Source: Halanaerobiales bacterium
Lineage (GTDB): Bacteria > Bacillota > Halanaerobiia > Halanaerobiales > DATFIM01
NCBI GenBank assembly: GCA_035270125.1
Contig: DATFIM010000005.1
Span: 1-47,288 of the forward strand
Direction of reading: 5' to 3'
DNA: 47,288 nucleotides
Shown one piece after another: positions 6,948 through 31,613 of this stretch; position 1 is the first letter of the stretch, and every line of letters begins with the position of its first letter. Made by a program: the position numbers and the translations under genes. The notes under the pieces were generated by a model. It was not told where the DNA came from, made no database searches, and saw only the letters and a program-made list of their open reading frames with translations.

Positions 6948-7032
6948 TGGTGGAGGGGAGAGGATTTGAACCTCTGTAGGCATCGCCGGCAGATTTACAG
7001 TCTGCTCCCTTTAGCCACTCGGGCACCCCTCC
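6948..7032 (-). tRNA. tRNA-Tyr(GTA), long variable arm, CCA encoded
   Basis: The reverse complement GGAGGGGTGCCCGAGTGG...GCAGACTGTAAATCTGC...CCCCTCCACCA folds as a cloverleaf with anticodon GTA. Confidence 0.9.
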
Positions 7033-7037
7033 AAATA

Positions 7038-7113
7038 TGGTACCCTCAAGGGGATTCGAACCCCTGTCGCCAGGATGAAAACCTGGTATCCTGGACCACT
7101 AGACGATGAGGGC
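7038..7113 (-). tRNA. tRNA-Glu(TTC), CCA encoded
   Basis: The reverse complement is GCCCTCATCGTCTAGTGGTCCAGGATACCAGGTTTTCATCCTGGCGACAGGGGTTCGAATCCCCTTGAGGGTACCA. The anticodon loop is TTTTCAT. Confidence 0.9.
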
Positions 7114-7127
7114 AAAATTTTAAAAAA

Positions 7128-7204
7128 TGGTCGGGCTGCTCGGATTTGAACCGAGGACCCCCTGCTCCCAAAGCAGGTGCGCTACCAAACTGCGCCACAG
7201 CCCG
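7128..7204 (-). tRNA. tRNA-Pro(TGG), CCA encoded
   Basis: The reverse complement is CGGGCTGTGGCGCAGTTTGGTAGCGCACCTGCTTTGGGAGCAGG...CAGCCCGACCA. The anticodon loop is TTTGGGA. Confidence 0.9.
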
Positions 7205-10436: not shown

Positions 10437-10512
10437 GCTGACGTAGCTCAATTGGCAGAGCAGCTGACTTGTAATCAGCAGGTTACCGGTTCAAGTCCGG
10501 TCGTCAGCTCCA
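10437..10512 (+). tRNA. tRNA-Thr(TGT), copy 1, CCA encoded
   Basis: Sequence GCTGACGTAGCTCAATTGGCAGAGCAGCTGACTTGTAATCAGCAGGTTACCGGTTCAAGTCCGGTCGTCAGCTCCA. The anticodon loop is CTTGTAA. Confidence 0.92.
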
Positions 10513-10553
10513 CAATAATGATCAAATTTATTATTACTAATTAAAATAGGTAT

Positions 10554-10629
10554 GCTGACGTAGCTCAATTGGCAGAGCAGCTGACTTGTAATCAGCAGGT
10601 TACCGGTTCAAGTCCGGTCGTCAGCTCCA
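10554..10629 (+). tRNA. tRNA-Thr(TGT), copy 2, identical to copy 1
   Basis: 76/76 nt identical to 10437-10512, separated by a 41-nt AT-rich spacer. Confidence 0.92.
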
Positions 10630-10651
10630 TTTTTTATTTATATACCTTTAT

Positions 10652-10680
10652 TTGCTTCTAATTATTTTTGATGCTATAAT
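10652..10680 (+). promoter_or_regulatory. Promoter of the small ORF plus tRNA-Pro(GGG) unit
   Basis: TTGCTT, 17-nt spacer, TG-extended TATAAT (10675-10680). Confidence 0.5.
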
Positions 10681-10701
10681 GAAGCTAAGGAAGTGGTTTT
10701 A

Positions 10702-10998
10702 ATGAGTGGTAATAAATATAGACATAATAAAATAAAAGAAGAACATACTATTATTGAAGATATAAAACCTCTATTGGAAGAAGTAGCCAAAATTGCTCAG
10801 GTAAAAAGTATTATACCCGGTCGAATAAATCAAAGAAGTGGAAGTGGCGTTCCAGCTTATTTACAGGTTAAATATAATACTTCAAGTGGTATAAAATTAT
10901 TAGGAAAAAATAGTTCATCAATTCAAGAAGTTTTTGTTGTAACAGATTATCCTGATAAGTTAAGCAAATATTTAAATAATCAGGATTATATAAAGTAG
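10702..10998 (+). CDS. Small conserved hypothetical protein (98 aa)
   Basis: ATG 10702 is preceded by AAGGAAG. Basic N-terminus and an IIPGRI...QEVFVV core. I vaguely recall a DUF2103-like pattern but cannot verify it. Confidence 0.6.
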   Translation: MSGNKYRHNKIKEEHTIIEDIKPLLEEVAKIAQVKSIIPGRINQRSGSGVPAYLQVKYNTSSGIKLLGKNSSSIQEVFVVTDYPDKLSKYLNNQDYIK

Positions 10999-11011
10999 AT
11001 AATGTAGCAAA

Positions 11012-11088
11012 CGGGCTGTGGCGCAGCTTGGTAGCGCACTATGCTGGGGGCGTAGGGGTCGCCGGTTCAAATCCGGCCAGCCCGACCA
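11012..11088 (+). tRNA. tRNA-Pro(GGG), CCA encoded
   Basis: Sequence CGGGCTGTGGCGCAGCTTGGTAGCGCACTATGCTGGGGGCGTAGGGGTCGCCGGTTCAAATCCGGCCAGCCCGACCA. The anticodon loop is CTGGGGG. Confidence 0.9.
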
Positions 11089-20290: not shown

Positions 20291-20397
20291 ATTATATAAA
20301 AAAATTCAATAAATATGCAGGAATTTTTTCTAGATATAGCTAATATAATATATGAAGAATATTATTTTCCAAAAATTGAGGAGGGATCTATTAATTC

Positions 20398-20658
20398 ATG
20401 GAAGTATTAAAAGTATCATCAAAATCCAGTCCCAATAAAGTGGCAGGAGCACTGGCTAATGTATTGAGGGAAAGAAATAATGCTGAATTACAGGCTATTG
20501 GTGCAGGTGCCTTAAATCAAGGAGTTAAAGCAGTAGCAATAGCAAGAGGCTTTGTAGCACCTAGTGGTATGGACCTTATTTGTATTCCCGCATTTACTGA
20601 TGTTGAAATTGATGGAGAAGAAAGAACGGCAATAAAATTAATTGTTGAACCTCGTTAA
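20398..20658 (+). CDS. spoVS: Stage V sporulation protein S
   Basis: MEVLKVSSKSSPNKVAGALA...QAIGAGALNQGVKAVAIARGF is near-canonical SpoVS. Confidence 0.94.
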   Translation: MEVLKVSSKSSPNKVAGALANVLRERNNAELQAIGAGALNQGVKAVAIARGFVAPSGMDLICIPAFTDVEIDGEERTAIKLIVEPR

Positions 20659-20682
20659 TAAAAAAACAAATATGAATTTAAT

Positions 20683-20716
20683 AAAACTGTCTGATATTAA
20701 TATCAGACAGTTTTTT
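20683..20716 (+). terminator. Intrinsic terminator after spoVS
   Basis: Perfect AAAACTGTCTGATAT/ATATCAGACAGTTTT palindrome, followed by a T run. Confidence 0.75.
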
Positions 20717-20794
20717 GGTTTTAAAAAATAAAGTTATATGATACTATATTATAGTGGGAATGATAATATTTAATTTGGAAGTGGTGATTATTTT

Positions 20795-21607
20795 ATGTCT
20801 GTAGATCTTCATCTTCATACAAAAGCTTCTGATGGAAGTTTAAGTCCTAAAAAAGTTGTATATAAAGCAAAAAAATTAAACTATAAGGCTATTTCAATTA
20901 CAGATCATGATACTGTTAGTGGATTAGATGAAGCAATCAAAAATGGTAAAAAAATAAATTTAGAAATAATTCCTGGAATAGAATTTAATACAAAATATAA
21001 AGGATTTGAAGTTCATATTTTAGGCTATTTTATTGATTATCACAATAAAAGTTTAATTAATGTCACTAAAAAATTACATGATTCTAGAGTAAAAAGAGTA
21101 AAAAGGATTGTAAATAAATTAAATGAAATGGGGATTAAAATAACTAATAATGATGTTTTTTCATTATCTGATGGAGGTGCTGTAGGTCGTTCACATGTAG
21201 CTAGAGTTTTAAAAAACAAAAATTATGTAGAAACTTTTTCGGAAGCTTTTGAAAAATATTTAGCTATTGGTAAAGAGGCTTATGTTGAAAGATATCGCTT
21301 AAAACCAGATGAAGCTATTATTATTATTAAAAAAGCTGGTGGTATTCCTGTTTTAGCACATCCTGGATTAATAGAAAATGATAAAATAGTAAATAAAATA
21401 CTATCAATGGGCGTTGAAGGTATTGAAGCATATTATTATGAACATAATTTAAATGAAACTAATAAATATATTAAATTAGCAAATGATAATGATTTATTAA
21501 TAACAGGGGGATCAGATGATCATGGTCCTGGCAATAAAGATGGAGCTCGATTGGGTAAAATGAAAATTGATTATAAATTGGTTGAAGCACTAAAAAATTC
21601 AATATGA
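20795..21607 (+). CDS. PHP-domain phosphoesterase (TrpH/YciV-like)
   Basis: VDLHLHTKASDGS, ISITDHDT and GGSDDHG motifs. Confidence 0.85.
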   Translation: MSVDLHLHTKASDGSLSPKKVVYKAKKLNYKAISITDHDTVSGLDEAIKNGKKINLEIIPGIEFNTKYKGFEVHILGYFIDYHNKSLINVTKKLHDSRVKRVKRIVNKLNEMGIKITNNDVFSLSDGGAVGRSHVARVLKNKNYVETFSEAFEKYLAIGKEAYVERYRLKPDEAIIIIKKAGGIPVLAHPGLIENDKIVNKILSMGVEGIEAYYYEHNLNETNKYIKLANDNDLLITGGSDDHGPGNKDGARLGKMKIDYKLVEALKNSI

Positions 21608-21714
21608 TATTTTAGTTCAAAACTCTCTTTTCTGCCTAAGAGGCAGGAATCTAATTATCTGTGTAGAAATTAGTAATAAGGGAAAATAAGAAGAAAATAA
21701 AAGGAGTGGTTTTA

Positions 21715-22371
21715 ATGAATATATTTAGTTTTCAGAAAATAATGGATTTATTAGCCTTAGGAGGACCAATGTCAATACCGCTTTTAATTGCATCAATTAC
21801 AAGTTTGGCAGTTATTATTGAAAAATTAATATTTTTTGCTAAACATAAAGATAATGGCTTTCGATTAATTAAAAAAATAGAAATGTTAGTTGATGAAGGT
21901 GATATTATGGGTGCTTTAAATGAACTAAAAGGTAAAAAAGGACCAAACGCAAAACTTTTATCAACTGCATTGGCTCATTATAGTGAAGATCCTGATCGAG
22001 TTAGGGAAGTAATGCAGGCAGTTGGAGAAGATGAAATAAAGAAAATGGAGAAACATTTAGCAGTTTTAGATGTAATAGCTATGATTTCTCCACTCCTTGG
22101 TTTACTTGGAACAGTGTTAGGTATTATTAGTAGTTTTAATATTTTAGGAACAGCTGCAGGAGCAGCCGCTCCATCACAAATTAGTTCAGGAATTGCAGCG
22201 GCTTTAATAAGTACTGCTTTAGGTTTAATAATTGCTATTCCTACAGCAATATTTTATTCATATTTTACTAATAAGGTTGAAAAAAGAGCACATGAAATGA
22301 ATCTCAGTATGGTTGATATAATTGAAGTAGTTTCTGATAGGGGGCAGGATAATGTTCAAACCTACTCTTAA
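21715..22371 (+). CDS. exbB: MotA/TolQ/ExbB-family proton-channel protein
   Basis: Three TM segments and a C-terminal GLLGTVLGII...ALISTALGLIIAIP core. ATG 21715 lies 8 nt after AAGGAG. Confidence 0.88.
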   Translation: MNIFSFQKIMDLLALGGPMSIPLLIASITSLAVIIEKLIFFAKHKDNGFRLIKKIEMLVDEGDIMGALNELKGKKGPNAKLLSTALAHYSEDPDRVREVMQAVGEDEIKKMEKHLAVLDVIAMISPLLGLLGTVLGIISSFNILGTAAGAAAPSQISSGIAAALISTALGLIIAIPTAIFYSYFTNKVEKRAHEMNLSMVDIIEVVSDRGQDNVQTYS

Positions 22372-22771
22372 AAAGAAGTCATCAATAAATATTATACCTA
22401 TGATTGATGTTATTTTCTTTCTTTTAGTATTTTTTATGCTATTTACTTCTTTTCGTTCTACCCCTGAGGGTTTAGATATGCAATTACCTAAAGCCGTTAC
22501 TACTACTCAACAAACTGAAAACAATATTATTATTAATGTTACTGAAGATGGTGAGTATTTTTATCAAAATAATAATATTTCTTTAAATAGTTTAGGGGAA
22601 AGAATTAAAAATGAACATGAAAATTTAGGAGATTTGACTGCTATTATAAATGCAGATGAGGAGGTAAAATATAGATATGTTGTTGATGTCATGGATAATT
22701 TGCGAAATGCAGGAATCTATAAATTAGCCCTTGCTGCAGAACCAAAGGGGGAGGAAGATGAAGGAGAATAA
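22352..22771 (+). CDS. exbD: ExbD/TolR-family protein
   Basis: INIIPMIDVIFFLLVFFM carries the conserved TM Asp. Periplasmic domain ends ...YRYVVDVMDNLRNAG. Overlaps exbB by 20 nt. Confidence 0.88.
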   Translation: MFKPTLKKKSSINIIPMIDVIFFLLVFFMLFTSFRSTPEGLDMQLPKAVTTTQQTENNIIINVTEDGEYFYQNNNISLNSLGERIKNEHENLGDLTAIINADEEVKYRYVVDVMDNLRNAGIYKLALAAEPKGEEDEGE

Positions 22772-23693
22772 ATTATTTAAATATATAGTGATATCTATAT
22801 TGATTCATGCTTTAATTTTATTCGCATTTCCTCTTGCTAATCAAGCTGGGTTTGGAGAAAAAAATGAAACTCAAGATTTTGGTTTTATTGAATTAGTAGA
22901 ATATAAACCCATTACTCAAACCAGTCAGGAAGCTGGTGAAAAGCAAAATTCTGAAGATAAACGTGAAAAAGAAGAAACTATAGAAGAAGATCAAAATATT
23001 GAGGAAATTGAGGAAGAGGAAAATAATATTGAAATTGATGAAGAAACAGAAGAAATAAAAAAAGATGAAGCACAAGAAACAACTGTTGAGAAAGTAAATG
23101 AGCAAGAAAGTCAAGAAGTACAAAATGAAACAGAAGAAGTTGAAGAAGTTAATGAAAATACTGATTCTACATCTAAAAATAACAATTCTGAAGTAATAAG
23201 TAGTGAAGAAAGCGATATTGAAATGGAAGTTGAAGATAAATCTCAGAATAATGATGAAAATGTAACTAATCAACAAAATGAAGAAGAAACTGAGACTAAT
23301 ACTGATACTAAAAATAAGCCTAATCCTTCAGAAGAAGAACAGGAAGAAGAGGAAGCTCCTCCACCTCCACCAACATCTGGAGAACTTATTGCCAAGTCAA
23401 TCACCCCTCAATACCCTAAAGATCTTGTCGGAGAAAATGAAAAAGGAACAGTTAAATTTGTTGTAAATATAGATAAAACTGGTGAATTATTAAGTCTAAC
23501 AATGACAGATTCTTCCGGTATAGAACAAATAGATAAAACATCAAGATTGGCAATAGAGCGAGGTTGGGAATTTAAATCATATAATATGCCCTATAGTATT
23601 CCAATAGTAGTTGATTTTAAAATTAATGAAGCTGGTAATCCTGTAATAGATCTTAATTTAGGTGAAGTAGACTTTAAGGAGGTGAATAATTAA
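22758..23693 (+). CDS. tonB: TonB-family energy-transducer-like protein with a hyper-acidic linker
   Basis: TM segment YIVISILIHALILF carries the S-x3-H motif. The Glu/Asn/Gln-rich linker is about 170 aa and ends in PPPPP. C-terminal PQYPKDLVGENEKGTVKFVVNIDKTGEL...SSGIEQIDK resembles TonB_C. ATG 22758 follows GGGGGAGG and overlaps exbD by 14 nt. Confidence 0.8.
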   Translation: MKENKLFKYIVISILIHALILFAFPLANQAGFGEKNETQDFGFIELVEYKPITQTSQEAGEKQNSEDKREKEETIEEDQNIEEIEEEENNIEIDEETEEIKKDEAQETTVEKVNEQESQEVQNETEEVEEVNENTDSTSKNNNSEVISSEESDIEMEVEDKSQNNDENVTNQQNEEETETNTDTKNKPNPSEEEQEEEEAPPPPPTSGELIAKSITPQYPKDLVGENEKGTVKFVVNIDKTGELLSLTMTDSSGIEQIDKTSRLAIERGWEFKSYNMPYSIPIVVDFKINEAGNPVIDLNLGEVDFKEVNN

Positions 23694-25705
23694 TGGTTTT
23701 ATCAAATAAATATAATATTTTAATTTTATTAATTATTTTTATTTCAATATTTTCAGGTATTTCAGTTGCACAAGAAAATATTGAAACTAGAGTAGATGAA
23801 TATAATAATTTGAGAATGACCAATGAATATATTGCTATTGTTATAAATCAAAATGATAATTCAAAAGGAAGATTTGCAGTTGAAACTACAGGAGGAGCAC
23901 CTTATAAAGAAAGTGATAAAAATAAACCTTTAGTATATGGAAGACCTAATCCCTGGACTTCATATACAACTATTAGAATTAATGAAGAAAATTATGTTTT
24001 TGGAGGAAATACTGAAAGAAGAGCAGGAAAAAACGCAGACTATGGAGAAATGATAACTGCTCCAAAAGTTGAAGATGGTACTATAAAGACAACTTATAAG
24101 ATAAATGATATAAATATTGAACAAAATTTATCTATTGTAAAAAGTACAACGACTGGATTATACGATACTGCTCAAATAAAATATAGATTGACTAATAATA
24201 GTAATCAAAGTAAAAATATAGGTTTAAGAATTATGCTGGATACTATGTTAGGTGAAAATGATGGAGCCCCTTTAAGAATGGGGGAAGAGGCTATCACTAG
24301 TGATAAATTATTTCCAAAAAATCAATTGTCAAATTTTTATCAGGCATTTGATAGTATTAGTGAACCCAAAGTTACTTCCCAGGGTACTTTGAAAGGACCA
24401 GGAGTTACTGTTCCTGATAAAGTGTATTTTTCTGACTGGGGAAGCCTGGCTGATGGAAGCTGGGATTTTGATTATAATCCTGGTGAAGATTTTATCAGAA
24501 AAGGTGGCTATGAAGTTGATAGTGCAGTAGCTATGTATTGGGAAAATAATGAATTAGCACCTGGTGAAAGTAAGATTTTTATAACCAATTATGGACTTGG
24601 TGGAATTTCAATTGTTCCAGGATTATTATCTTTAGGTGTAACATCACCTGCTGAATTTGTATTTGACAAACCTGATAAAAGTTTTCCAGTTATTGCCTAT
24701 ATAGAAAACACTTCTGATATTGAAGCAAAAAACGTTAATGTTAATTTAAATATATCTGATAACTTTGCTGTAAAAGAAGTAAAAAAAGATCTTGGTAATT
24801 TAAAATCTGGTTCTATTAGACAGGTAGAATGGCAGGTAAAACCAAAAGTATTAGATATTTATCAAAAACAGGATTCTACTGAATTTTCTGTTGAGGTTAA
24901 AGCAGATAATACGGATTCAAATAAAGTAAGAAGATCAATTGATTTAGTAGGTCCTCCAGGTCTTAATACTTCTGTGAAAGTAAATGATGAGTTAACAGTA
25001 AACAAAGGAAGAATTATCCCAAATCCGTTTACTATTACTGCTGAAGTGGCGAATAATGGAGGATCAACATTATATGATACTTATAGTGAAATAGTTTTAC
25101 CACCTGGTATAACTTTAGCAAGTTATGAAAAAACAAGTAAATTTTTAGGACCTGTTAAACCTGGAGAAAAAATTAAAATAAATTGGGAAGTAAAATCTTT
25201 AAATGTTGAAGGTGGATTTGAATATGCAGTAGTTACTGACGGTCTACATGGTTATAGTCAAACTGCAAAAGAAGAAATTAATCTTCCTGGTTTAAAACCT
25301 ACATTATATTTTAAAACAAATAAAAATCCAGTAGAAAACAATTTAATTACAGTAGATATATGTGCTGAAAATTTTGAACGAATTAAAAATATGGACCTTA
25401 GAATTTCTTTTGATGAAGAGAAATTAAAAGCTATAATGGTATATCCAGGTGATATTTTTGTTAAAGATGGTGAAATTGTTAATTGGAATTCAGCTGAAAT
25501 AAAAAGTAATGGTATAATTCAATTAAAAAATATTTTACCTGATAATCATAATGGAAATATTTTGGGAAGTATTCAGTTTAGAATTAAAGAAGGTAATGAA
25601 TTACCTATAAACTGGCATCAATTATTTTTTGCTGATTCTGAAGGTAATGAAATAAAAATAGAAAATATAAAAGGAGTGTTTGTTGATGAAGAAAATATTC
25701 AGTAG
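23693..25705 (+). CDS. Secreted 670-aa multidomain protein of unknown function (novel N-terminal domain, two Ig/CARDB-like modules, cohesin-like C-terminal domain)
   Basis: Signal peptide ending SVA/QEN. Mid-region repeats follow the pattern ...N.G...L......V.LP.G........G.L..G....V.W.VK. The C-terminus (ITVDICAENFERIKNMDLRISFDEEKLKAIMVYPGDIF...GSIQFRIKEG) resembles type-I cohesin. The start overlaps the tonB-like stop (TAATG), with AAGGAGGTGA upstream. Confidence 0.8.
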   Translation: MVLSNKYNILILLIIFISIFSGISVAQENIETRVDEYNNLRMTNEYIAIVINQNDNSKGRFAVETTGGAPYKESDKNKPLVYGRPNPWTSYTTIRINEENYVFGGNTERRAGKNADYGEMITAPKVEDGTIKTTYKINDINIEQNLSIVKSTTTGLYDTAQIKYRLTNNSNQSKNIGLRIMLDTMLGENDGAPLRMGEEAITSDKLFPKNQLSNFYQAFDSISEPKVTSQGTLKGPGVTVPDKVYFSDWGSLADGSWDFDYNPGEDFIRKGGYEVDSAVAMYWENNELAPGESKIFITNYGLGGISIVPGLLSLGVTSPAEFVFDKPDKSFPVIAYIENTSDIEAKNVNVNLNISDNFAVKEVKKDLGNLKSGSIRQVEWQVKPKVLDIYQKQDSTEFSVEVKADNTDSNKVRRSIDLVGPPGLNTSVKVNDELTVNKGRIIPNPFTITAEVANNGGSTLYDTYSEIVLPPGITLASYEKTSKFLGPVKPGEKIKINWEVKSLNVEGGFEYAVVTDGLHGYSQTAKEEINLPGLKPTLYFKTNKNPVENNLITVDICAENFERIKNMDLRISFDEEKLKAIMVYPGDIFVKDGEIVNWNSAEIKSNGIIQLKNILPDNHNGNILGSIQFRIKEGNELPINWHQLFFADSEGNEIKIENIKGVFVDEENIQ

Positions 25706-26501
25706 TCTTGTTATTTTGTTATTTATAATTACTGTTTTTTCAATTTCAGTTAATGCTGCTGAAATTGAAGATATTTCAAAAGATCATTGGGCTTATGATA
25801 GTGTACAAAAATTGATTAACAGGGGATATTTAACTTTATATGAAGATGATACTTTTAAAGGTGAAAATAAAGTTTCGCGTTATGAATTAGCTACTATATT
25901 GGCCAGAATGTTAGATGACCTTCAAACAAGTGATGTACAAATTACTGAAGATGATACTGATGAAATAAGAAAATTGTCTCTGGAGTTTAGAGATGAATTA
26001 GTGGAAATTGCTAAAAAGCAGGAAGATATTTTTAATAATTTAGAAAATAATAAAGAAAAAAATGTTGTACAAACTGAAGCTATTGGTGAAAATCGCGAAA
26101 TAATTAACAATAATAAAGAAGAAATTAATAACATCATTGAAACAATTAATAAATTGAAAAACTTAAGTAATGAAATTGAAAAATTAAATAAAGAACTAAA
26201 AGACCAAACTATCACTATTAATAATTTAGAAGAAAAGTTAAAAGAAAATGATAATGATATTAGTGTAATAAATGAGGATTTGAAAAATATAGGTGAGGAT
26301 TTAGGAAATCAAGAAGCAATTCAAAATATAAAAGACCAACAGGCTGTTACTGTAACTAATGTAGATAGTTTAAATAGTAAGATAAATTCTTTAAATAGAA
26401 AAATTGAAGATCAAAATAAAAACATTGAAGATTTGAAACAACAAAATCAACAACAAAGATTATATTTTATTGCTTTAGCCGCTGCAATGTTAATCTTTTA
26501 A
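25686..26501 (+). CDS. SLH-domain / coiled-coil / C-terminal hydrophobic-tail protein (Omp-alpha-like envelope spacer)
   Basis: Signal peptide ending VNA/AE. One SLH motif (DISKDHWAYDSVQKLINRGYLTLYEDDTFKGENKVSRYELATILARML). About 170 aa follow with heptad-like Asn/Glu/Lys/Ile/Leu repeats. The C-terminus is RLYFIALAAAMLIF. ATG 25686 lies 9 nt after GGAG and overlaps the upstream gene by 20 nt. Confidence 0.8.
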   Translation: MKKIFSSLVILLFIITVFSISVNAAEIEDISKDHWAYDSVQKLINRGYLTLYEDDTFKGENKVSRYELATILARMLDDLQTSDVQITEDDTDEIRKLSLEFRDELVEIAKKQEDIFNNLENNKEKNVVQTEAIGENREIINNNKEEINNIIETINKLKNLSNEIEKLNKELKDQTITINNLEEKLKENDNDISVINEDLKNIGEDLGNQEAIQNIKDQQAVTVTNVDSLNSKINSLNRKIEDQNKNIEDLKQQNQQQRLYFIALAAAMLIF

Positions 26502-26516
26502 CCTTTGGTGATATAA

Positions 26517-27125
26517 ATGAATAAAAAAATATTAAAAACAAGTGATAATCTTATTATATTTTTAGTAATAATATTGACAATTAATTTTATATTTTTACCT
26601 GCCTTTTCTTTAAAAGCCAGGGCTGAGGATTCTATTAATAAAGAAGATATATACACAGGTATAGGTGTAGCTGTTTTGTTAGTAATAATATCAAAAATAG
26701 CAGAAAATAATAATAAAGTATCAGAAACAACTAATAATTCAAGAGTAAATATTGATTATGAAAATCTTGATAATAAAGATGTAGAAATTCTAGCAAGAGC
26801 TATATATGCTGAATCTAGAGGAGAACCATATAAAGGCCAGGTAGCGGTTGGAGCTGTAATTTTGAATAGAGTTAAAAGCGCCAATTTCCCTAATTCTATT
26901 GAAAAAGTAGTTTATCAGGATGGACAATTTTCTTCAGTTCAGGATGGACAGATCAATCTTTTACCTAATAAAACTGCCTTAAATGCTGCCAAAGAAGCAA
27001 TAAACGGTAAAGACCCAAGTAAAGGGGCTCTATATTTTTATAATCCAAAAACTGCAAAAACACTCTGGTGGCTTAATACAAGAGATAAATTAACTGAAAT
27101 AGGTAATCATGTTTTTGCGAAATAA
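26517..27125 (+). CDS. SleB/CwlJ-family cell-wall hydrolase (Hydrolase_2 domain) with an N-terminal membrane/signal region
   Basis: ILARAIYAESRGEPYKGQVAVGAVILNRV...FPNSIEKVVYQDGQFS...ALYFYNP...W is the SleB catalytic-domain signature. Starts 15 nt after the SLH gene stop. Confidence 0.85.
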   Translation: MNKKILKTSDNLIIFLVIILTINFIFLPAFSLKARAEDSINKEDIYTGIGVAVLLVIISKIAENNNKVSETTNNSRVNIDYENLDNKDVEILARAIYAESRGEPYKGQVAVGAVILNRVKSANFPNSIEKVVYQDGQFSSVQDGQINLLPNKTALNAAKEAINGKDPSKGALYFYNPKTAKTLWWLNTRDKLTEIGNHVFAK

Positions 27126-27149
27126 AATATTATTAGAAAATTAAGATTT

Positions 27150-27178
27150 AAGCCCCTTGTAATAAAGGGGCTTTTTTT
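27150..27178. terminator. Bidirectional intrinsic terminator between the envelope operon and convergent parC
   Basis: AAGCCCCTT-GTAATA-AAGGGGCTT stem, followed by T7 and preceded by an A/T-rich tract. Confidence 0.7.
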
Positions 27179-27183
27179 AGTGA

Positions 27184-29568
27184 TTAACTATTATCTTTAT
27201 CAGTGTTTGGTATGATTTTAACTTCTTTTATTTTATCATTATTATTTATATCAATTAATTTGTACATATATCCAGGCCTTTCTACTTCTGTTATTTTGTC
27301 AATTGAAATTTCATGCATATTTTCTTCAATAGTTGTAATTAATAAATTTTCATTTTTATTTGCTAATACTACAGAATGAATAGAATAGTTACTGGCTGCA
27401 GCTATATTCAAACCTTTTCCATTTCTATTTTGTGGTTTAAAATGTTTTTTATGAGAACGATGACCTTTACCAGATTCTGTCACTGCAATAACATAATTTT
27501 TATTATCAACTTTACCCATATTTAATATACTATCTTTGTTTTCTAATTTCATCCCTCTACTACCTTTGGTATTTCTACCGGTATCTGAAAAAGAATCTGC
27601 AGCGAATCTAATAACTTTACCATTACTACTTGCCATCATGATGTCTGAATTATCATTTATAATCGTCATACTTACTACTTTGTCCTTATTATTAAGTTTA
27701 ATAGCTTTAATTTTAGTATAATTAGTTTTATATTCACTAATTTTTGTCTTTTTAATCATTCCTTTTTCGGTTGCTAAAGCTATATATTTATCCTTATTTT
27801 GTTTATTAATACATGTCATACCAATTATATTTTCTTTAAGTGGTATTTTTAAATATTTCTTGAGGTTTTCACCAGTAGAAAGCCCGTGATGTTCTGACAA
27901 TTCATGGACTTCGAGGGTATAGACCTGACCCGTGTCAGTAAAGAATAGCAGATTATCAAAAGTTTTTCCTTCAACAATATTTATTATATAATCATTTTTA
28001 GCTGCTCTTACATTATCAAAATTATCAGTTCTTTTAATTTTATTTCGGTGTGAAAGTGAAATTACTGCTTTTTTAACTTTAATTAAATCTTTTTTATTAA
28101 TTATTGCTTTATCTTCATTTTCTATTATTTCGGTATTTCTATCATCTCCATATTTTTCCTTTATTTCTTTTAATTCTTTACGTAATAACTTATCTAAAAC
28201 TTCCTTTTCATTAAGAATATTATTATATCTGTTTATTTTATCCTCAAGTTCTTTTGCTTCAGTTTTCAATTTTTCAGTTTCCATTCCAACTAACCTTTGT
28301 AATCTCATACTTAAAATAGCTTGAGCCTGTTCTTTAGTAATAAATAATTTTTCTATTAATTTTGTTTTGGCTTCTGAAGTAGATTCAGAATTTCTAATAA
28401 TTGATATTACTAAATCAAGTTTATCAATAGCTTTTATTAAACCTTCAACAATGTGATATCTGTTTTCTGCTTTATTTAAAAGGTATTTAGTTCTTTTGGA
28501 GATTACTTCTCTTCTGAAATCAAGAAAATGATTTAACATTTCTTTTAAAGTCATTACAACTGGTCTATTATTATGCAGAGCAAGTAAATTTATCCTATAT
28601 GATTTTTGTAATGAACTATATTTAAATAATCTATTAAGAATTATTTCGCTTTCTGCCCCTCGTTTTAAATCAATTGCAATTCTCAATCCATCTTGATCAG
28701 ATTCATCTCTAACATCTGAAATGTTGGAGACTTTTTCTTTTTTTACTAAATTGGCTATTTCTTCGATTAGTTTTGCTTTATTAGTTTGATAGGGCAATTC
28801 AGTTATAATAATTTGTTTTGTACGACCACTTTTTTCTATTTTACTTTTTGCTCTTAAGGTAATTTTGCCTTTACCAGTTTCATAAGCATTCTTTATTCCA
28901 TCAGCACCAATGATTTTAGCTCCTGTAGGAAAATCTGGTCCTTTAATTTTATCCATAATTGTTTCTAATCTGGCATTAGGATGGCGAGACATATGTAATA
29001 AAGCGTCAATAACCTCAGTCATATTGTGAGGAGGAATATCAGTACTCATTCCAACAGCGATTCCACTGGCACCATTAACAAGAAGATTAGGAACTTTACT
29101 TGGTAAAACCTCTGGTTCTTTTAATGAACCATCAAAATTATCAGTAAACCCTACAGTATCTTTTTCTATATCTTCTAATATATCAGCAGATAATTCAGTT
29201 AGTCTGGCCTCTGTATAACGCATAGCAGCAGCACTATCGCCATCGATTGATCCAAAATTACCATGTCCATCAATTAAAGGATAATGTAGATTAAATGGCT
29301 GTGCCATACGTACCATAGCATTGTAGACTGCATTGTCGCCATGAGGATGATATTTACCCAATACTTCACCGACTATTCTAGCTGATTTTTTGTGGGATTT
29401 TTTGTGGGTCAAACCAAGTTCATTTGATGCATATAATATCCTTCGGTGAACTGGTTTTAAACCATCTCTAACATCTGGCAAAGCACGACTAACAATTACA
29501 CTTAGTGAATAACTTAAATAAGAATCTTTCATTTTATCTTCAATAGTAACCGGAGTTATATCTGACAT
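27184..29568 (-). CDS. parC: Type IIA topoisomerase subunit A, ParC-like (no GyrA box)
   Basis: [16 protein letters not shown] and the active-site region [10 protein letters not shown]. The CTD position that holds QRRGGKG in GyrA reads VRAAKNDY here. The parC versus gyrA call has confidence of about 0.6. Confidence 0.88.
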
Positions 29569-29622
29569 AATAAAATTCTCCCTTCAATTTTCTAAAATTA
29601 ATAATAAAAGTCCGTATTTGAT

Positions 29623-31613
<1,991 letters not shown>

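Follow-up and report, generated by a model that had tools for sequence, protein, structure and literature searches.

A 47,288-nucleotide stretch of DNA from a Halanaerobiales bacterium (GenBank assembly GCA_035270125.1, contig DATFIM010000005.1; this whole stretch is called the window below) carries at 21715-27125 a + strand operon of six genes. Five of them are inseparable across several lineages. They encode a two-subunit stator of the TolQ/TolR type, a TonB-like transducer, a 670-residue secreted protein (p670), and a secreted tether (gene 5) with a domain of the S-layer homology (SLH) type, a coiled coil and a hydrophobic tail at its C-terminus. We see an even chance that this module is a system driven by the proton-motive force (PMF) and resembling Tol-Pal, which would maintain or remodel the link between outer membrane and cell wall and would not be a nutrient importer.

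In Proteobacteria and their relatives, a stable outer membrane and its constriction depend centrally on Tol-Pal, a system reported to be absent from Terrabacteria. Pal and Lpp are likewise reported to be missing from Terrabacteria, whose outer membrane is described as tethered through SLH proteins (10.1101/2021.05.31.446380; PMC10628300). How they coordinate outer membrane, wall and inner membrane is a question tied to the diderm-to-monoderm transition. The strictly linked motor, adaptor and tether described here form a concrete and testable gene set in Halanaerobiales, Limnochordia-type Bacillota, Margulisbacteria and at least one Armatimonadetes-labelled genome.

Five genes keep their order across lineages

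When one genome per species was scanned, p670 relatives turned up in 326 genomes. Loci were analysed by script for the best 80 of the 326, mostly Limnochordia-type and unclassified Bacillota metagenome-assembled genomes (MAGs), together with three separately collected Halanaerobiales loci. Upstream of p670, TolQ-like and TolR-like genes are present in 67 of the 67 loci with enough flank, as is a TonB-like gene with the S-x3-H motif (59 found by phmmer and 8 as an open reading frame (ORF) filling the gap). Downstream, an SLH/coiled-coil gene is found in 74 of 74 loci; it is always adjacent to p670 and often overlaps it. All five genes stand in the same order in every locus with both flanks (60/60), spanning Halanaerobiales and Limnochordia-type Bacillota.

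Every close relative of p670 (45-87% identity) comes from Halanaerobiales. The same six genes stand in the same order in Halothermothrix orenii, Natronospora and Halanaerobium praevalens, with a different gene directly upstream. The conserved unit is nevertheless five genes and not six, because the SleB-like gene that ends the operon is a Halanaerobiales-only addition. The six-gene module proposed in an earlier, sequence-only reading of this DNA therefore describes the Halanaerobiales operon well but not the conserved unit.

That reading had also placed the system in diderm Firmicutes; the synteny extends far beyond close relatives to other Bacillota classes and on to other Terrabacterial phyla, so the restriction does not hold. 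Three Margulisbacteria contigs encode MotA_ExbB, ExbD, TonB_C and p670, followed by a small protein. In the two contigs with readable DNA, this fifth protein has a signal peptide, a degenerate SLH domain, a short coiled coil and a hydrophobic tail. The same five genes occur in one further lineage, where the fifth encodes a clear SLH domain, and an Armatimonadetes-labelled MAG has the same order. What stays invariant is thus the motor together with the TonB-like transducer, p670, and a secreted protein that has a coiled coil and ends in a hydrophobic helix.

MAG contigs keep their deposited taxon labels, some of which are suspect. Locus L025 is deposited as 'Betaproteobacteria bacterium' and the p670 relative P0189 as 'Thermoproteota archaeon'; both contigs are probably mis-binned, since both group with Bacillota or Margulisbacteria sequences.

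A TolQ/TolR-type stator and a TonB-family transducer

The first two genes encode the stator. The TolQ/ExbB-family subunit (218 aa; 21715..22371, +; ATG start, ribosome-binding site AAAGGAG) matches PF01618 MotA_ExbB at 4.6e-33, and the TolR/ExbD-family subunit (139 aa; 22352..22771, +), whose gene overlaps the first by 20 nt, matches PF02472 ExbD at 1.3e-33. Among NCBIfam models, TolQ (TIGR02796) scores 105.4 bits against 72 bits for ExbB, and TolR (TIGR02801) scores 84.9 bits against 58 bits for ExbD. These scores stay below the equivalog cut-offs of 221 for TolQ and 127.3 for TolR, and the ExbB and ExbD scores are likewise below theirs. The translation of the TolR-like protein has a single transmembrane (TM) helix with Asp at residue 19 in IPMIDVIFFLLVFF (core IPMIDVIFF). 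We take this residue to be the equivalent of E. coli TolR D23 and ExbD D25.

The third gene (311 aa; 22758..23693, +; ATG start, ribosome-binding site GGGGGAGGAAG) encodes a protein that belongs to the TonB family by its N-terminal TM helix with S-x3-H (SILIH), its long linker and its TonB_C domain. PF03544 TonB_C matches at 2.3e-8, with 34.8 bits against a cut-off of 24.6, and TIGR01352 reaches 23.2 bits, under its cut-off of 27.1. The linker of about 194 aa is acidic and polar (33% Asp+Glu). The C-domain has a YP...SSG pattern and weakly matches the TonB C-domains 9ddz and 9dc4 in the PDB, its nearest solved relatives. At E<=0.1, the transducer's Pfam matches were limited to TonB_C and TonB_2, with no TolA-type domain III. 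The S-x3-H motif is present in 65 of the 65 TonB-like sequences examined, the window's included.

Pfam and the translations thus bear out the MotA/TolQ/ExbB channel, the ExbD/TolR protein with its TM Asp and the long-linker TonB-family protein that had been recognised from the sequence. Homology and motif conservation support a TolQ/TolR-type stator that would act, driven by the PMF, on the TonB-like protein.

p670 combines a supersandwich, Ig-like domains and a cohesin-like end

The fourth gene (23693..25705, +) encodes p670, for which the Pfam and NCBIfam libraries give only sub-threshold Cohesin and NPCBM_assoc matches. Its predicted architecture is a signal peptide, a beta-supersandwich (~27-320), two Ig-like domains (~325-535) and a cohesin-like domain (~540-660). 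AlphaFold2 models the full-length protein as all-beta with pLDDT 80.7, and the isolated N-domain with pLDDT 86.8 and pTM 0.87. Foldseek matched this N-domain to galactose-mutarotase-like beta-supersandwiches, with E down to 3e-8 and TM-scores of 0.45-0.56; they comprise aldose-1-epimerases, the YidC P1 domain, and the N-domains found in GH94 phosphorylases and cyclic glucan synthase, in GH116 and in GH65. The full-length model had returned generic tandem-Ig matches only (integrins, transglutaminase C-domains, complement), and the search became informative after the N-domain was isolated. At the other end, residues 535-645 match type II cohesins of the PDB in a profile built from 30 relatives (E 3.9e-4). 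p670 has no TolB, WD40 or PD40 match in Pfam, and its models contain no beta-propeller.

By far the most conserved part of the alignment is the N-terminal 300 residues, with segments such as LDTMLGxNDGAP; no Pfam or NCBIfam model was found to match this domain. A profile search of 1.84 billion representatives recovered 900 clusters at 50% identity with E<=1e-30, with Limnochorda pilosa and Hydrogenispora among the named members. p670 thereby defines a large uncharacterised protein family. Single-linkage clustering of the family was uninformative.

The same type of N-domain heads large, otherwise unrelated secreted proteins from bacteria of unrelated groups: P0267 (Priestia, 1201 aa), P0266 (an RHS-repeat protein), P0263, P0257 and P0261. 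Its partners there are a lipase-like alpha/beta hydrolase in the Priestia protein, RHS/YD repeats, PKD arrays and CarboxypepD_reg domains. Since it heads such unrelated proteins, the domain appears to be a portable binding module rather than an enzyme. The models suggest that p670 is an elongated secreted protein whose head probably binds glycan and whose cohesin-like end would bind protein, with two Ig-like spacers between them.

Mature p670 was inspected for a free N-terminal strand resembling a TonB box; such a strand is not supported, because the first conserved strands (NEYIAIVIN) are modelled with high pLDDT within the folded supersandwich. Among the relatives, P0175 (937 aa; locus L086, 9001-11814) has a long C-terminal extension in which the cohesin-like segment repeats, as read from the sequence, and P0185 (983 aa) has a 340-aa acidic, low-complexity N-terminal extension.

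The tether is an OmpM/SlpA-like stalk ending in a hydrophobic helix

The fifth gene (271 aa; 25686..26501, +; ATG start) encodes a signal peptide, one SLH domain (PF00395, 3.2e-7), a coiled coil and the hydrophobic C-terminal tail LYFIALAAAMLIF. It has significant homology to Deinococcus radiodurans SlpA (7zgx, 4.1e-11) and Veillonella parvula OmpM1 (8bys, 2.8e-10; 8bz2, 5.6e-10). The alignments span the SLH domain and the start of the stalk and share W-x-Y...G-x5-RYE, positions discussed for the binding of OmpM to polyaminated peptidoglycan (PMC10628300). Gene 5 encodes no beta-barrel, no OmpA domain and no lipobox Cys in the signal peptide. From this homology, we read it as an OmpM/SlpA-type stalk in which the barrel has been replaced by a hydrophobic helix.

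Nearly all complete orthologues of gene 5, at 174-606 aa, end in the hydrophobic tail. The coiled coil takes about 170 aa here, and its length across lineages ranges from about 70 to 488 aa. A shared periplasmic ruler was considered and rejected: with n = 60, coiled-coil length does not correlate with the periplasmic length of the TonB-like protein (rho 0.04, p 0.74), nor with the length of p670 (rho 0.20, p 0.13).

A counterpart by described architecture, the level at which the two were matched, is Thermotoga Omp-alpha (OmpA1), which likewise has an SLH domain, a coiled coil and ~20 hydrophobic C-terminal residues (PMC3387000). By this analogy, the tail probably sits in the outer membrane. 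The coiled coil of Omp-alpha is longer, at 316 aa versus ~170 aa in gene 5. The genomic settings differ as well: Omp-alpha genes are described beside porin genes (PMC3387000; 10.1101/2021.05.31.446380), whereas gene 5 lies in a motor operon and is followed by a SleB-like or variable gene, never by a barrel gene among those examined.

No TonB-dependent receptor was found near the module

We searched for TonB-dependent receptors in the window and in the orthologous flanks. No Plug or TonB_dep_Rec domain was found in window ORFs of at least 600 aa (p670, topoisomerase A and B subunits, MutS and MutL), in agreement with the sequence-only reading. In 1.48 Mb of orthologous flanks, 106 ORFs of at least 560 aa fell into 40 clusters, and neither domain was present in any of the 40 representatives scanned. 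Among the products of these large ORFs are CheA, MutS, a PASTA kinase, topoisomerases and penicillin-binding proteins, while other ORFs have no Pfam match. Across 87 loci, neither a receptor gene nor any other beta-barrel gene is linked to the module.

The literature points the same way. In H. orenii, ExbB, ExbD and a putative TonB were found together, no receptor was detected, and 'a different function' was suggested, with the caveat that receptors might simply be 'too divergent to be detected' (PMC2626281). In a 2025 survey, Negativicutes were the only diderm Firmicutes in which Ton systems were detected, and Tol-Pal was detected in no group but Gracilicutes (PMC12204202). According to Garcia et al., TolQ/TolR alone among the division-associated genes separate diderm from monoderm Firmicutes (PMC8136486). 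The present module explains both the long-standing 'orphan' set of ExbB, ExbD and TonB in Halothermothrix and the TolQ/TolR that Firmicutes have only when diderm.

The module resembles several known systems in part

The comparison with Tol-Pal is closest in layout. In both, a TolQ/TolR-family stator is followed by a TM transducer with S-x3-H and a long linker, then by a secreted periplasmic protein and a peptidoglycan-binding tether, in a tight housekeeping operon with no associated receptor; the preference of the stator for TolQ/TolR over ExbB/ExbD models adds to the likeness. The positional analogy to tolQ-tolR-tolA-tolB-pal holds because the synteny is wide and the motor sets examined do not sit beside TonB-dependent receptors, two points on either of which the sequence-only reading said its idea could fail; the Tol-Pal-like function proposed with it is a matter of inference. 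The module differs from Tol-Pal in having TonB_C instead of TolA domain III, in lacking CpoB and YbgC, in TolQ/TolR scores far under the equivalog cut-offs, and in its hosts, which are Terrabacteria, where Tol-Pal is reported absent (PMC12204202).

With Ton systems it shares a homologous motor, a true TonB-family C-domain, S-x3-H and the conserved TolR/ExbD TM Asp. Unlike them, it has no linked TonB-dependent transporter, and its motor invariably accompanies p670 and a cell-wall tether. Gene 5 resembles OmpM and SlpA in its N-terminal SLH domain and coiled-coil stalk but lacks their C-terminal porin barrel. Anabaena SjdR (TonB1) offers a precedent for a Terrabacterial TonB-family protein that shapes septal peptidoglycan rather than serving siderophore transport (PMC8597729). 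Exceptionally short itself, SjdR is described as unlikely to extend as far as the outer membrane, in contrast to the ~194-aa linker and dedicated partner genes here, and no linkage of SjdR to p670 or a tether has been described.

The motor and transducer are of known kinds, and their presence in diderm Firmicutes has already been noted. The proposal of an unrecognised connector is therefore too broad for the motor genes (PMC2626281, PMC8136486), while p670 and the tether were not noted in those studies. In the literature we found no description of the obligatory partnership of motor and transducer with p670 and an Omp-alpha-like tether, of the p670 family, or of the Terrabacterial spread of the five genes.

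A candidate mechanism and its alternatives

In the Tol-Pal-like reading, which we judge the likeliest, ion flow through the stator would be converted to mechanical work on the TonB-like protein, whose C-domain would engage p670 and/or the tether in the periplasm. The supersandwich of p670 may bind peptidoglycan or an attached polymer, with the cohesin-like domain binding a partner. The tether would trimerise like OmpM, bind modified peptidoglycan through its SLH domain, and anchor its tail in the outer membrane, as has been proposed for Omp-alpha. Energised cycles could then redistribute or release attachments during growth and division, parallel to the action of TolQRA on TolB-Pal, and in Halanaerobiales the membrane-anchored SleB-type enzyme might supply local peptidoglycan cutting. 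The steps beyond stator action are deduced from strict co-occurrence and domain content.

A more specific version is possible but tentative. Here the module would be the Terrabacterial counterpart of Tol-Pal, an ancient PMF machine whose TonB-type transducer works through glycan-binding p670 to load, tension or relocate a helically anchored SLH/coiled-coil tether between wall and outer membrane. In that case, the energised tethering of outer membranes would either predate the split of Terrabacteria and Gracilicutes or have been invented twice from a Ton-type motor, and a route for placing helical anchors in the outer membrane would be revealed.

Several observations weigh against the Tol-Pal-like reading. 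The 670-aa protein does occupy the TolB slot that had been proposed for it, but with an unrelated fold: TolB consists of an alpha/beta domain and a six-bladed beta-propeller, whereas p670 is a supersandwich/Ig/cohesin-like protein with no similarity to it. The recurrence of the p670 N-domain in unrelated secreted proteins also marks it as a generic binding module. The SLH protein likewise stands where Pal would, but Pal is an outer-membrane lipoprotein with an OmpA-like peptidoglycan-binding domain, to which the tether's SLH domain, coiled coil and helical tail bear no similarity. The alpha-helical, Omp-alpha-like tail might sit in either the outer or the inner membrane, and the tether could join inner membrane to wall, because a helical tail after a Sec signal peptide normally stays in the inner membrane. 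The coiled coil varies four-fold (113-488 aa) without tracking the periplasmic length of the TonB-like protein, and in the Armatimonadetes-labelled MAG the fifth protein has a coiled coil and tail with no SLH domain. The absence of TonB-dependent receptors covers the flanks and, through the literature, one complete genome.

Two of the alternatives keep the motor and change its load. The module could be Ton-type uptake machinery whose outer-membrane gate is unconventional or has escaped recognition, perhaps an OmpM-type porin; p670 would capture a glycan and pass it on to the gate, and the TonB-like protein would energise import. In its favour, the transducer is of the TonB and not the TolA family (TonB_C above cut-off; TonB C-domains as nearest PDB relatives), the p670 N-domain has a fold that carbohydrate-binding accessory domains in glycoside hydrolases and phosphorylases typically show, and the receptors of H. 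orenii may have escaped detection through divergence (PMC2626281). We nonetheless think uptake rather unlikely, as no receptor or barrel gene is linked in the loci examined, the genes consistently next to the module include no glycoside hydrolase, ABC importer or regulator, the neighbourhood is housekeeping, and the constant partner is a peptidoglycan-binding coiled-coil tether with no obvious role in import. Alternatively, the machine might serve biogenesis or insertion of the tether itself: p670 would escort the hydrophobic helix through the periplasm, and the TonB-like motor would power its release into the outer membrane or its tensioning. This would fit the coiled coil and tail, which are invariant in gene 5 even where the SLH domain is degenerate or absent, and the constant adjacency of p670 and the tether gene. 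It would also fit the want of any known pathway for alpha-helical outer-membrane anchors, even though Omp-alpha is toga-associated in Thermotoga (PMC3387000, PMC10160955). Such a role is purely inferential, and Omp-alpha genes are described next to porin genes rather than a motor; we judge it unlikely.

The other two alternatives assign the module to a different process. A part in envelope remodelling during sporulation or germination of diderm spore-formers, on the cortex or the forespore-derived outer membrane, is suggested by the SleB/CwlJ-type hydrolase that ends the operon, by spoVS upstream, and by the place of the Limnochordia-type module between spoIIAA-spoIIAB-sigF-like and spoVAC/spoVAD-like genes (read from translations). 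We consider it very unlikely. Halanaerobium praevalens, described as a non-sporulating species, keeps both the module and the SleB-like gene, and outside Halanaerobiales that gene is absent. The five genes also occur in Margulisbacteria and the Armatimonadetes-labelled MAG, while endospores are exclusive to Firmicutes (PMC13018214). Finally, the TolQ-like protein gave weak ZorA matches (E 1.4e-4, 19 bits), as a Zorya-like or other MotAB-type anti-phage defence system might. In the defence-system scan, these reflect the MotA/ExbB superfamily only, the remainder being coiled-coil noise; ZorB, ZorC and ZorD-like components and a nuclease are missing, and the module keeps a conserved housekeeping position with a vertical distribution over whole orders. 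The scan and the synteny effectively refute defence, whose probability we put close to nil.

Operon layout and the SleB-like gene

The window has a low GC content (~28%). Its ORF listing shows six consecutive + strand ORFs between 21706 and 27125, for which starts were chosen by start codons bearing a Shine-Dalgarno sequence. In the operon so defined, successive junctions overlap by 20, 14, 1 and 20 nt, followed by a 15-nt gap, and the six genes are translationally coupled. An intrinsic terminator at 27150..27173 (+), with a 9-bp stem containing 5 GC pairs, a 6-nt loop and a T-run, marks the operon end; it is the strongest terminator-like site in 20300-29800 and separates the operon from a topoisomerase A-subunit gene that converges on it. 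The other + strand match within the operon (24445-24464) has no T-run. The tight unit, its junctions and the single convincing terminator after it had all been described from the sequence, and the ORF listing, the inspection of start codons and ribosome-binding sites and the terminator prediction confirmed them. Two antisense ORFs, 22893-23276 (-) of 127 aa and 25922-26215 (-) of 97 aa, lie opposite the low-complexity TonB-like linker and the coiled coil. Rich in Ile, Phe and Leu, they look like artefacts of Glu/Lys/Asn-rich coding on the sense strand, not genes.

The sixth gene (202 aa; 26517..27125, +) encodes an accessory SleB/CwlJ-type cell-wall hydrolase. Like SleB and CwlJ, it has a full-length Hydrolase_2 domain (PF07486, 2.1e-37, 128.2 bits, profile positions 1-100 of 100). 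It differs from them in scoring 168.5 bits against a cut-off of 236.5 for the SleB equivalog (TIGR02869), in having hydrophobic N-terminal segments ahead of the domain instead of PG_binding, for which Pfam gave no match at E<=0.1, and in its place in an envelope-motor operon. Its YAESRGE segment is presumably the SleB/CwlJ catalytic-Glu motif. The gene follows the module only in Halanaerobiales-type loci (L001-L003, L054, L060, L075 and L078). A conserved enzyme in the same slot was sought in the non-Halanaerobiales loci and none was found; downstream neighbours there are variable, with CheW-like, SpoVAC/AD-like and cysteine-desulfurase-like genes read from the sequences.

Neighbouring genes

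Upstream of the operon lies a PHP-domain gene (20795..21607, +; PF02811, 1.4e-15), whose membership is uncertain. The 98-nt gap between it and the TolQ-like gene has no convincing predicted terminator, so co-transcription with the operon is possible. The 98-nt leader has no Rfam match and does not fold better than its shuffles (z = -1.15), giving no evidence for a riboswitch or attenuator. A PHP homologue is upstream in 28 loci, frequent without being constant, and Gate-family or two-component genes take this position in Natronospora and H. praevalens. A second predicted terminator (20683-20714) lies 3' of spoVS. The neighbours of the module are housekeeping genes (rny, ymdB, spoVS, topoisomerase) rather than nutrient-uptake genes.

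Flanks in other lineages have their own character. In Limnochordia-type loci, spoIIAA/spoIIAB/sigF-like and GNAT-like genes precede the module (34-40 loci), and SpoVAC/SpoVAD-like genes follow in ~17 and CheW-like genes in 21, all read from translations in L004-L083 (for example L005, 5093-5895, and L014, 13085-14600). From these flanks, the module appears to be inserted between spoIIA and spoVA operons that neighbour each other in Bacillus. In Margulisbacteria (L084, 11859-17453; L085, 14923-17941), it precedes, by a few genes, an lptF/lptG-family gene and a long TPR protein, a neighbourhood that may be one of outer-membrane biogenesis. An ORF of the 800-aa class with no Pfam match follows in L084 and in the contig of P0193.

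Directly downstream of the operon in the window, genes for topoisomerase subunits diverge: the A subunit (DNA_topoisoIV and GyrA C-terminal repeats; 27184-29568, -) converges on the operon terminator, and the B subunit (29700-31613, +) is read away from it. The topoisomerase arrangement is the same in H. orenii and H. praevalens. Elsewhere, the Rfam scan of the window returned six tRNAs only, in two clusters of three at 6951-7204 (-) and 10437-11085 (+).

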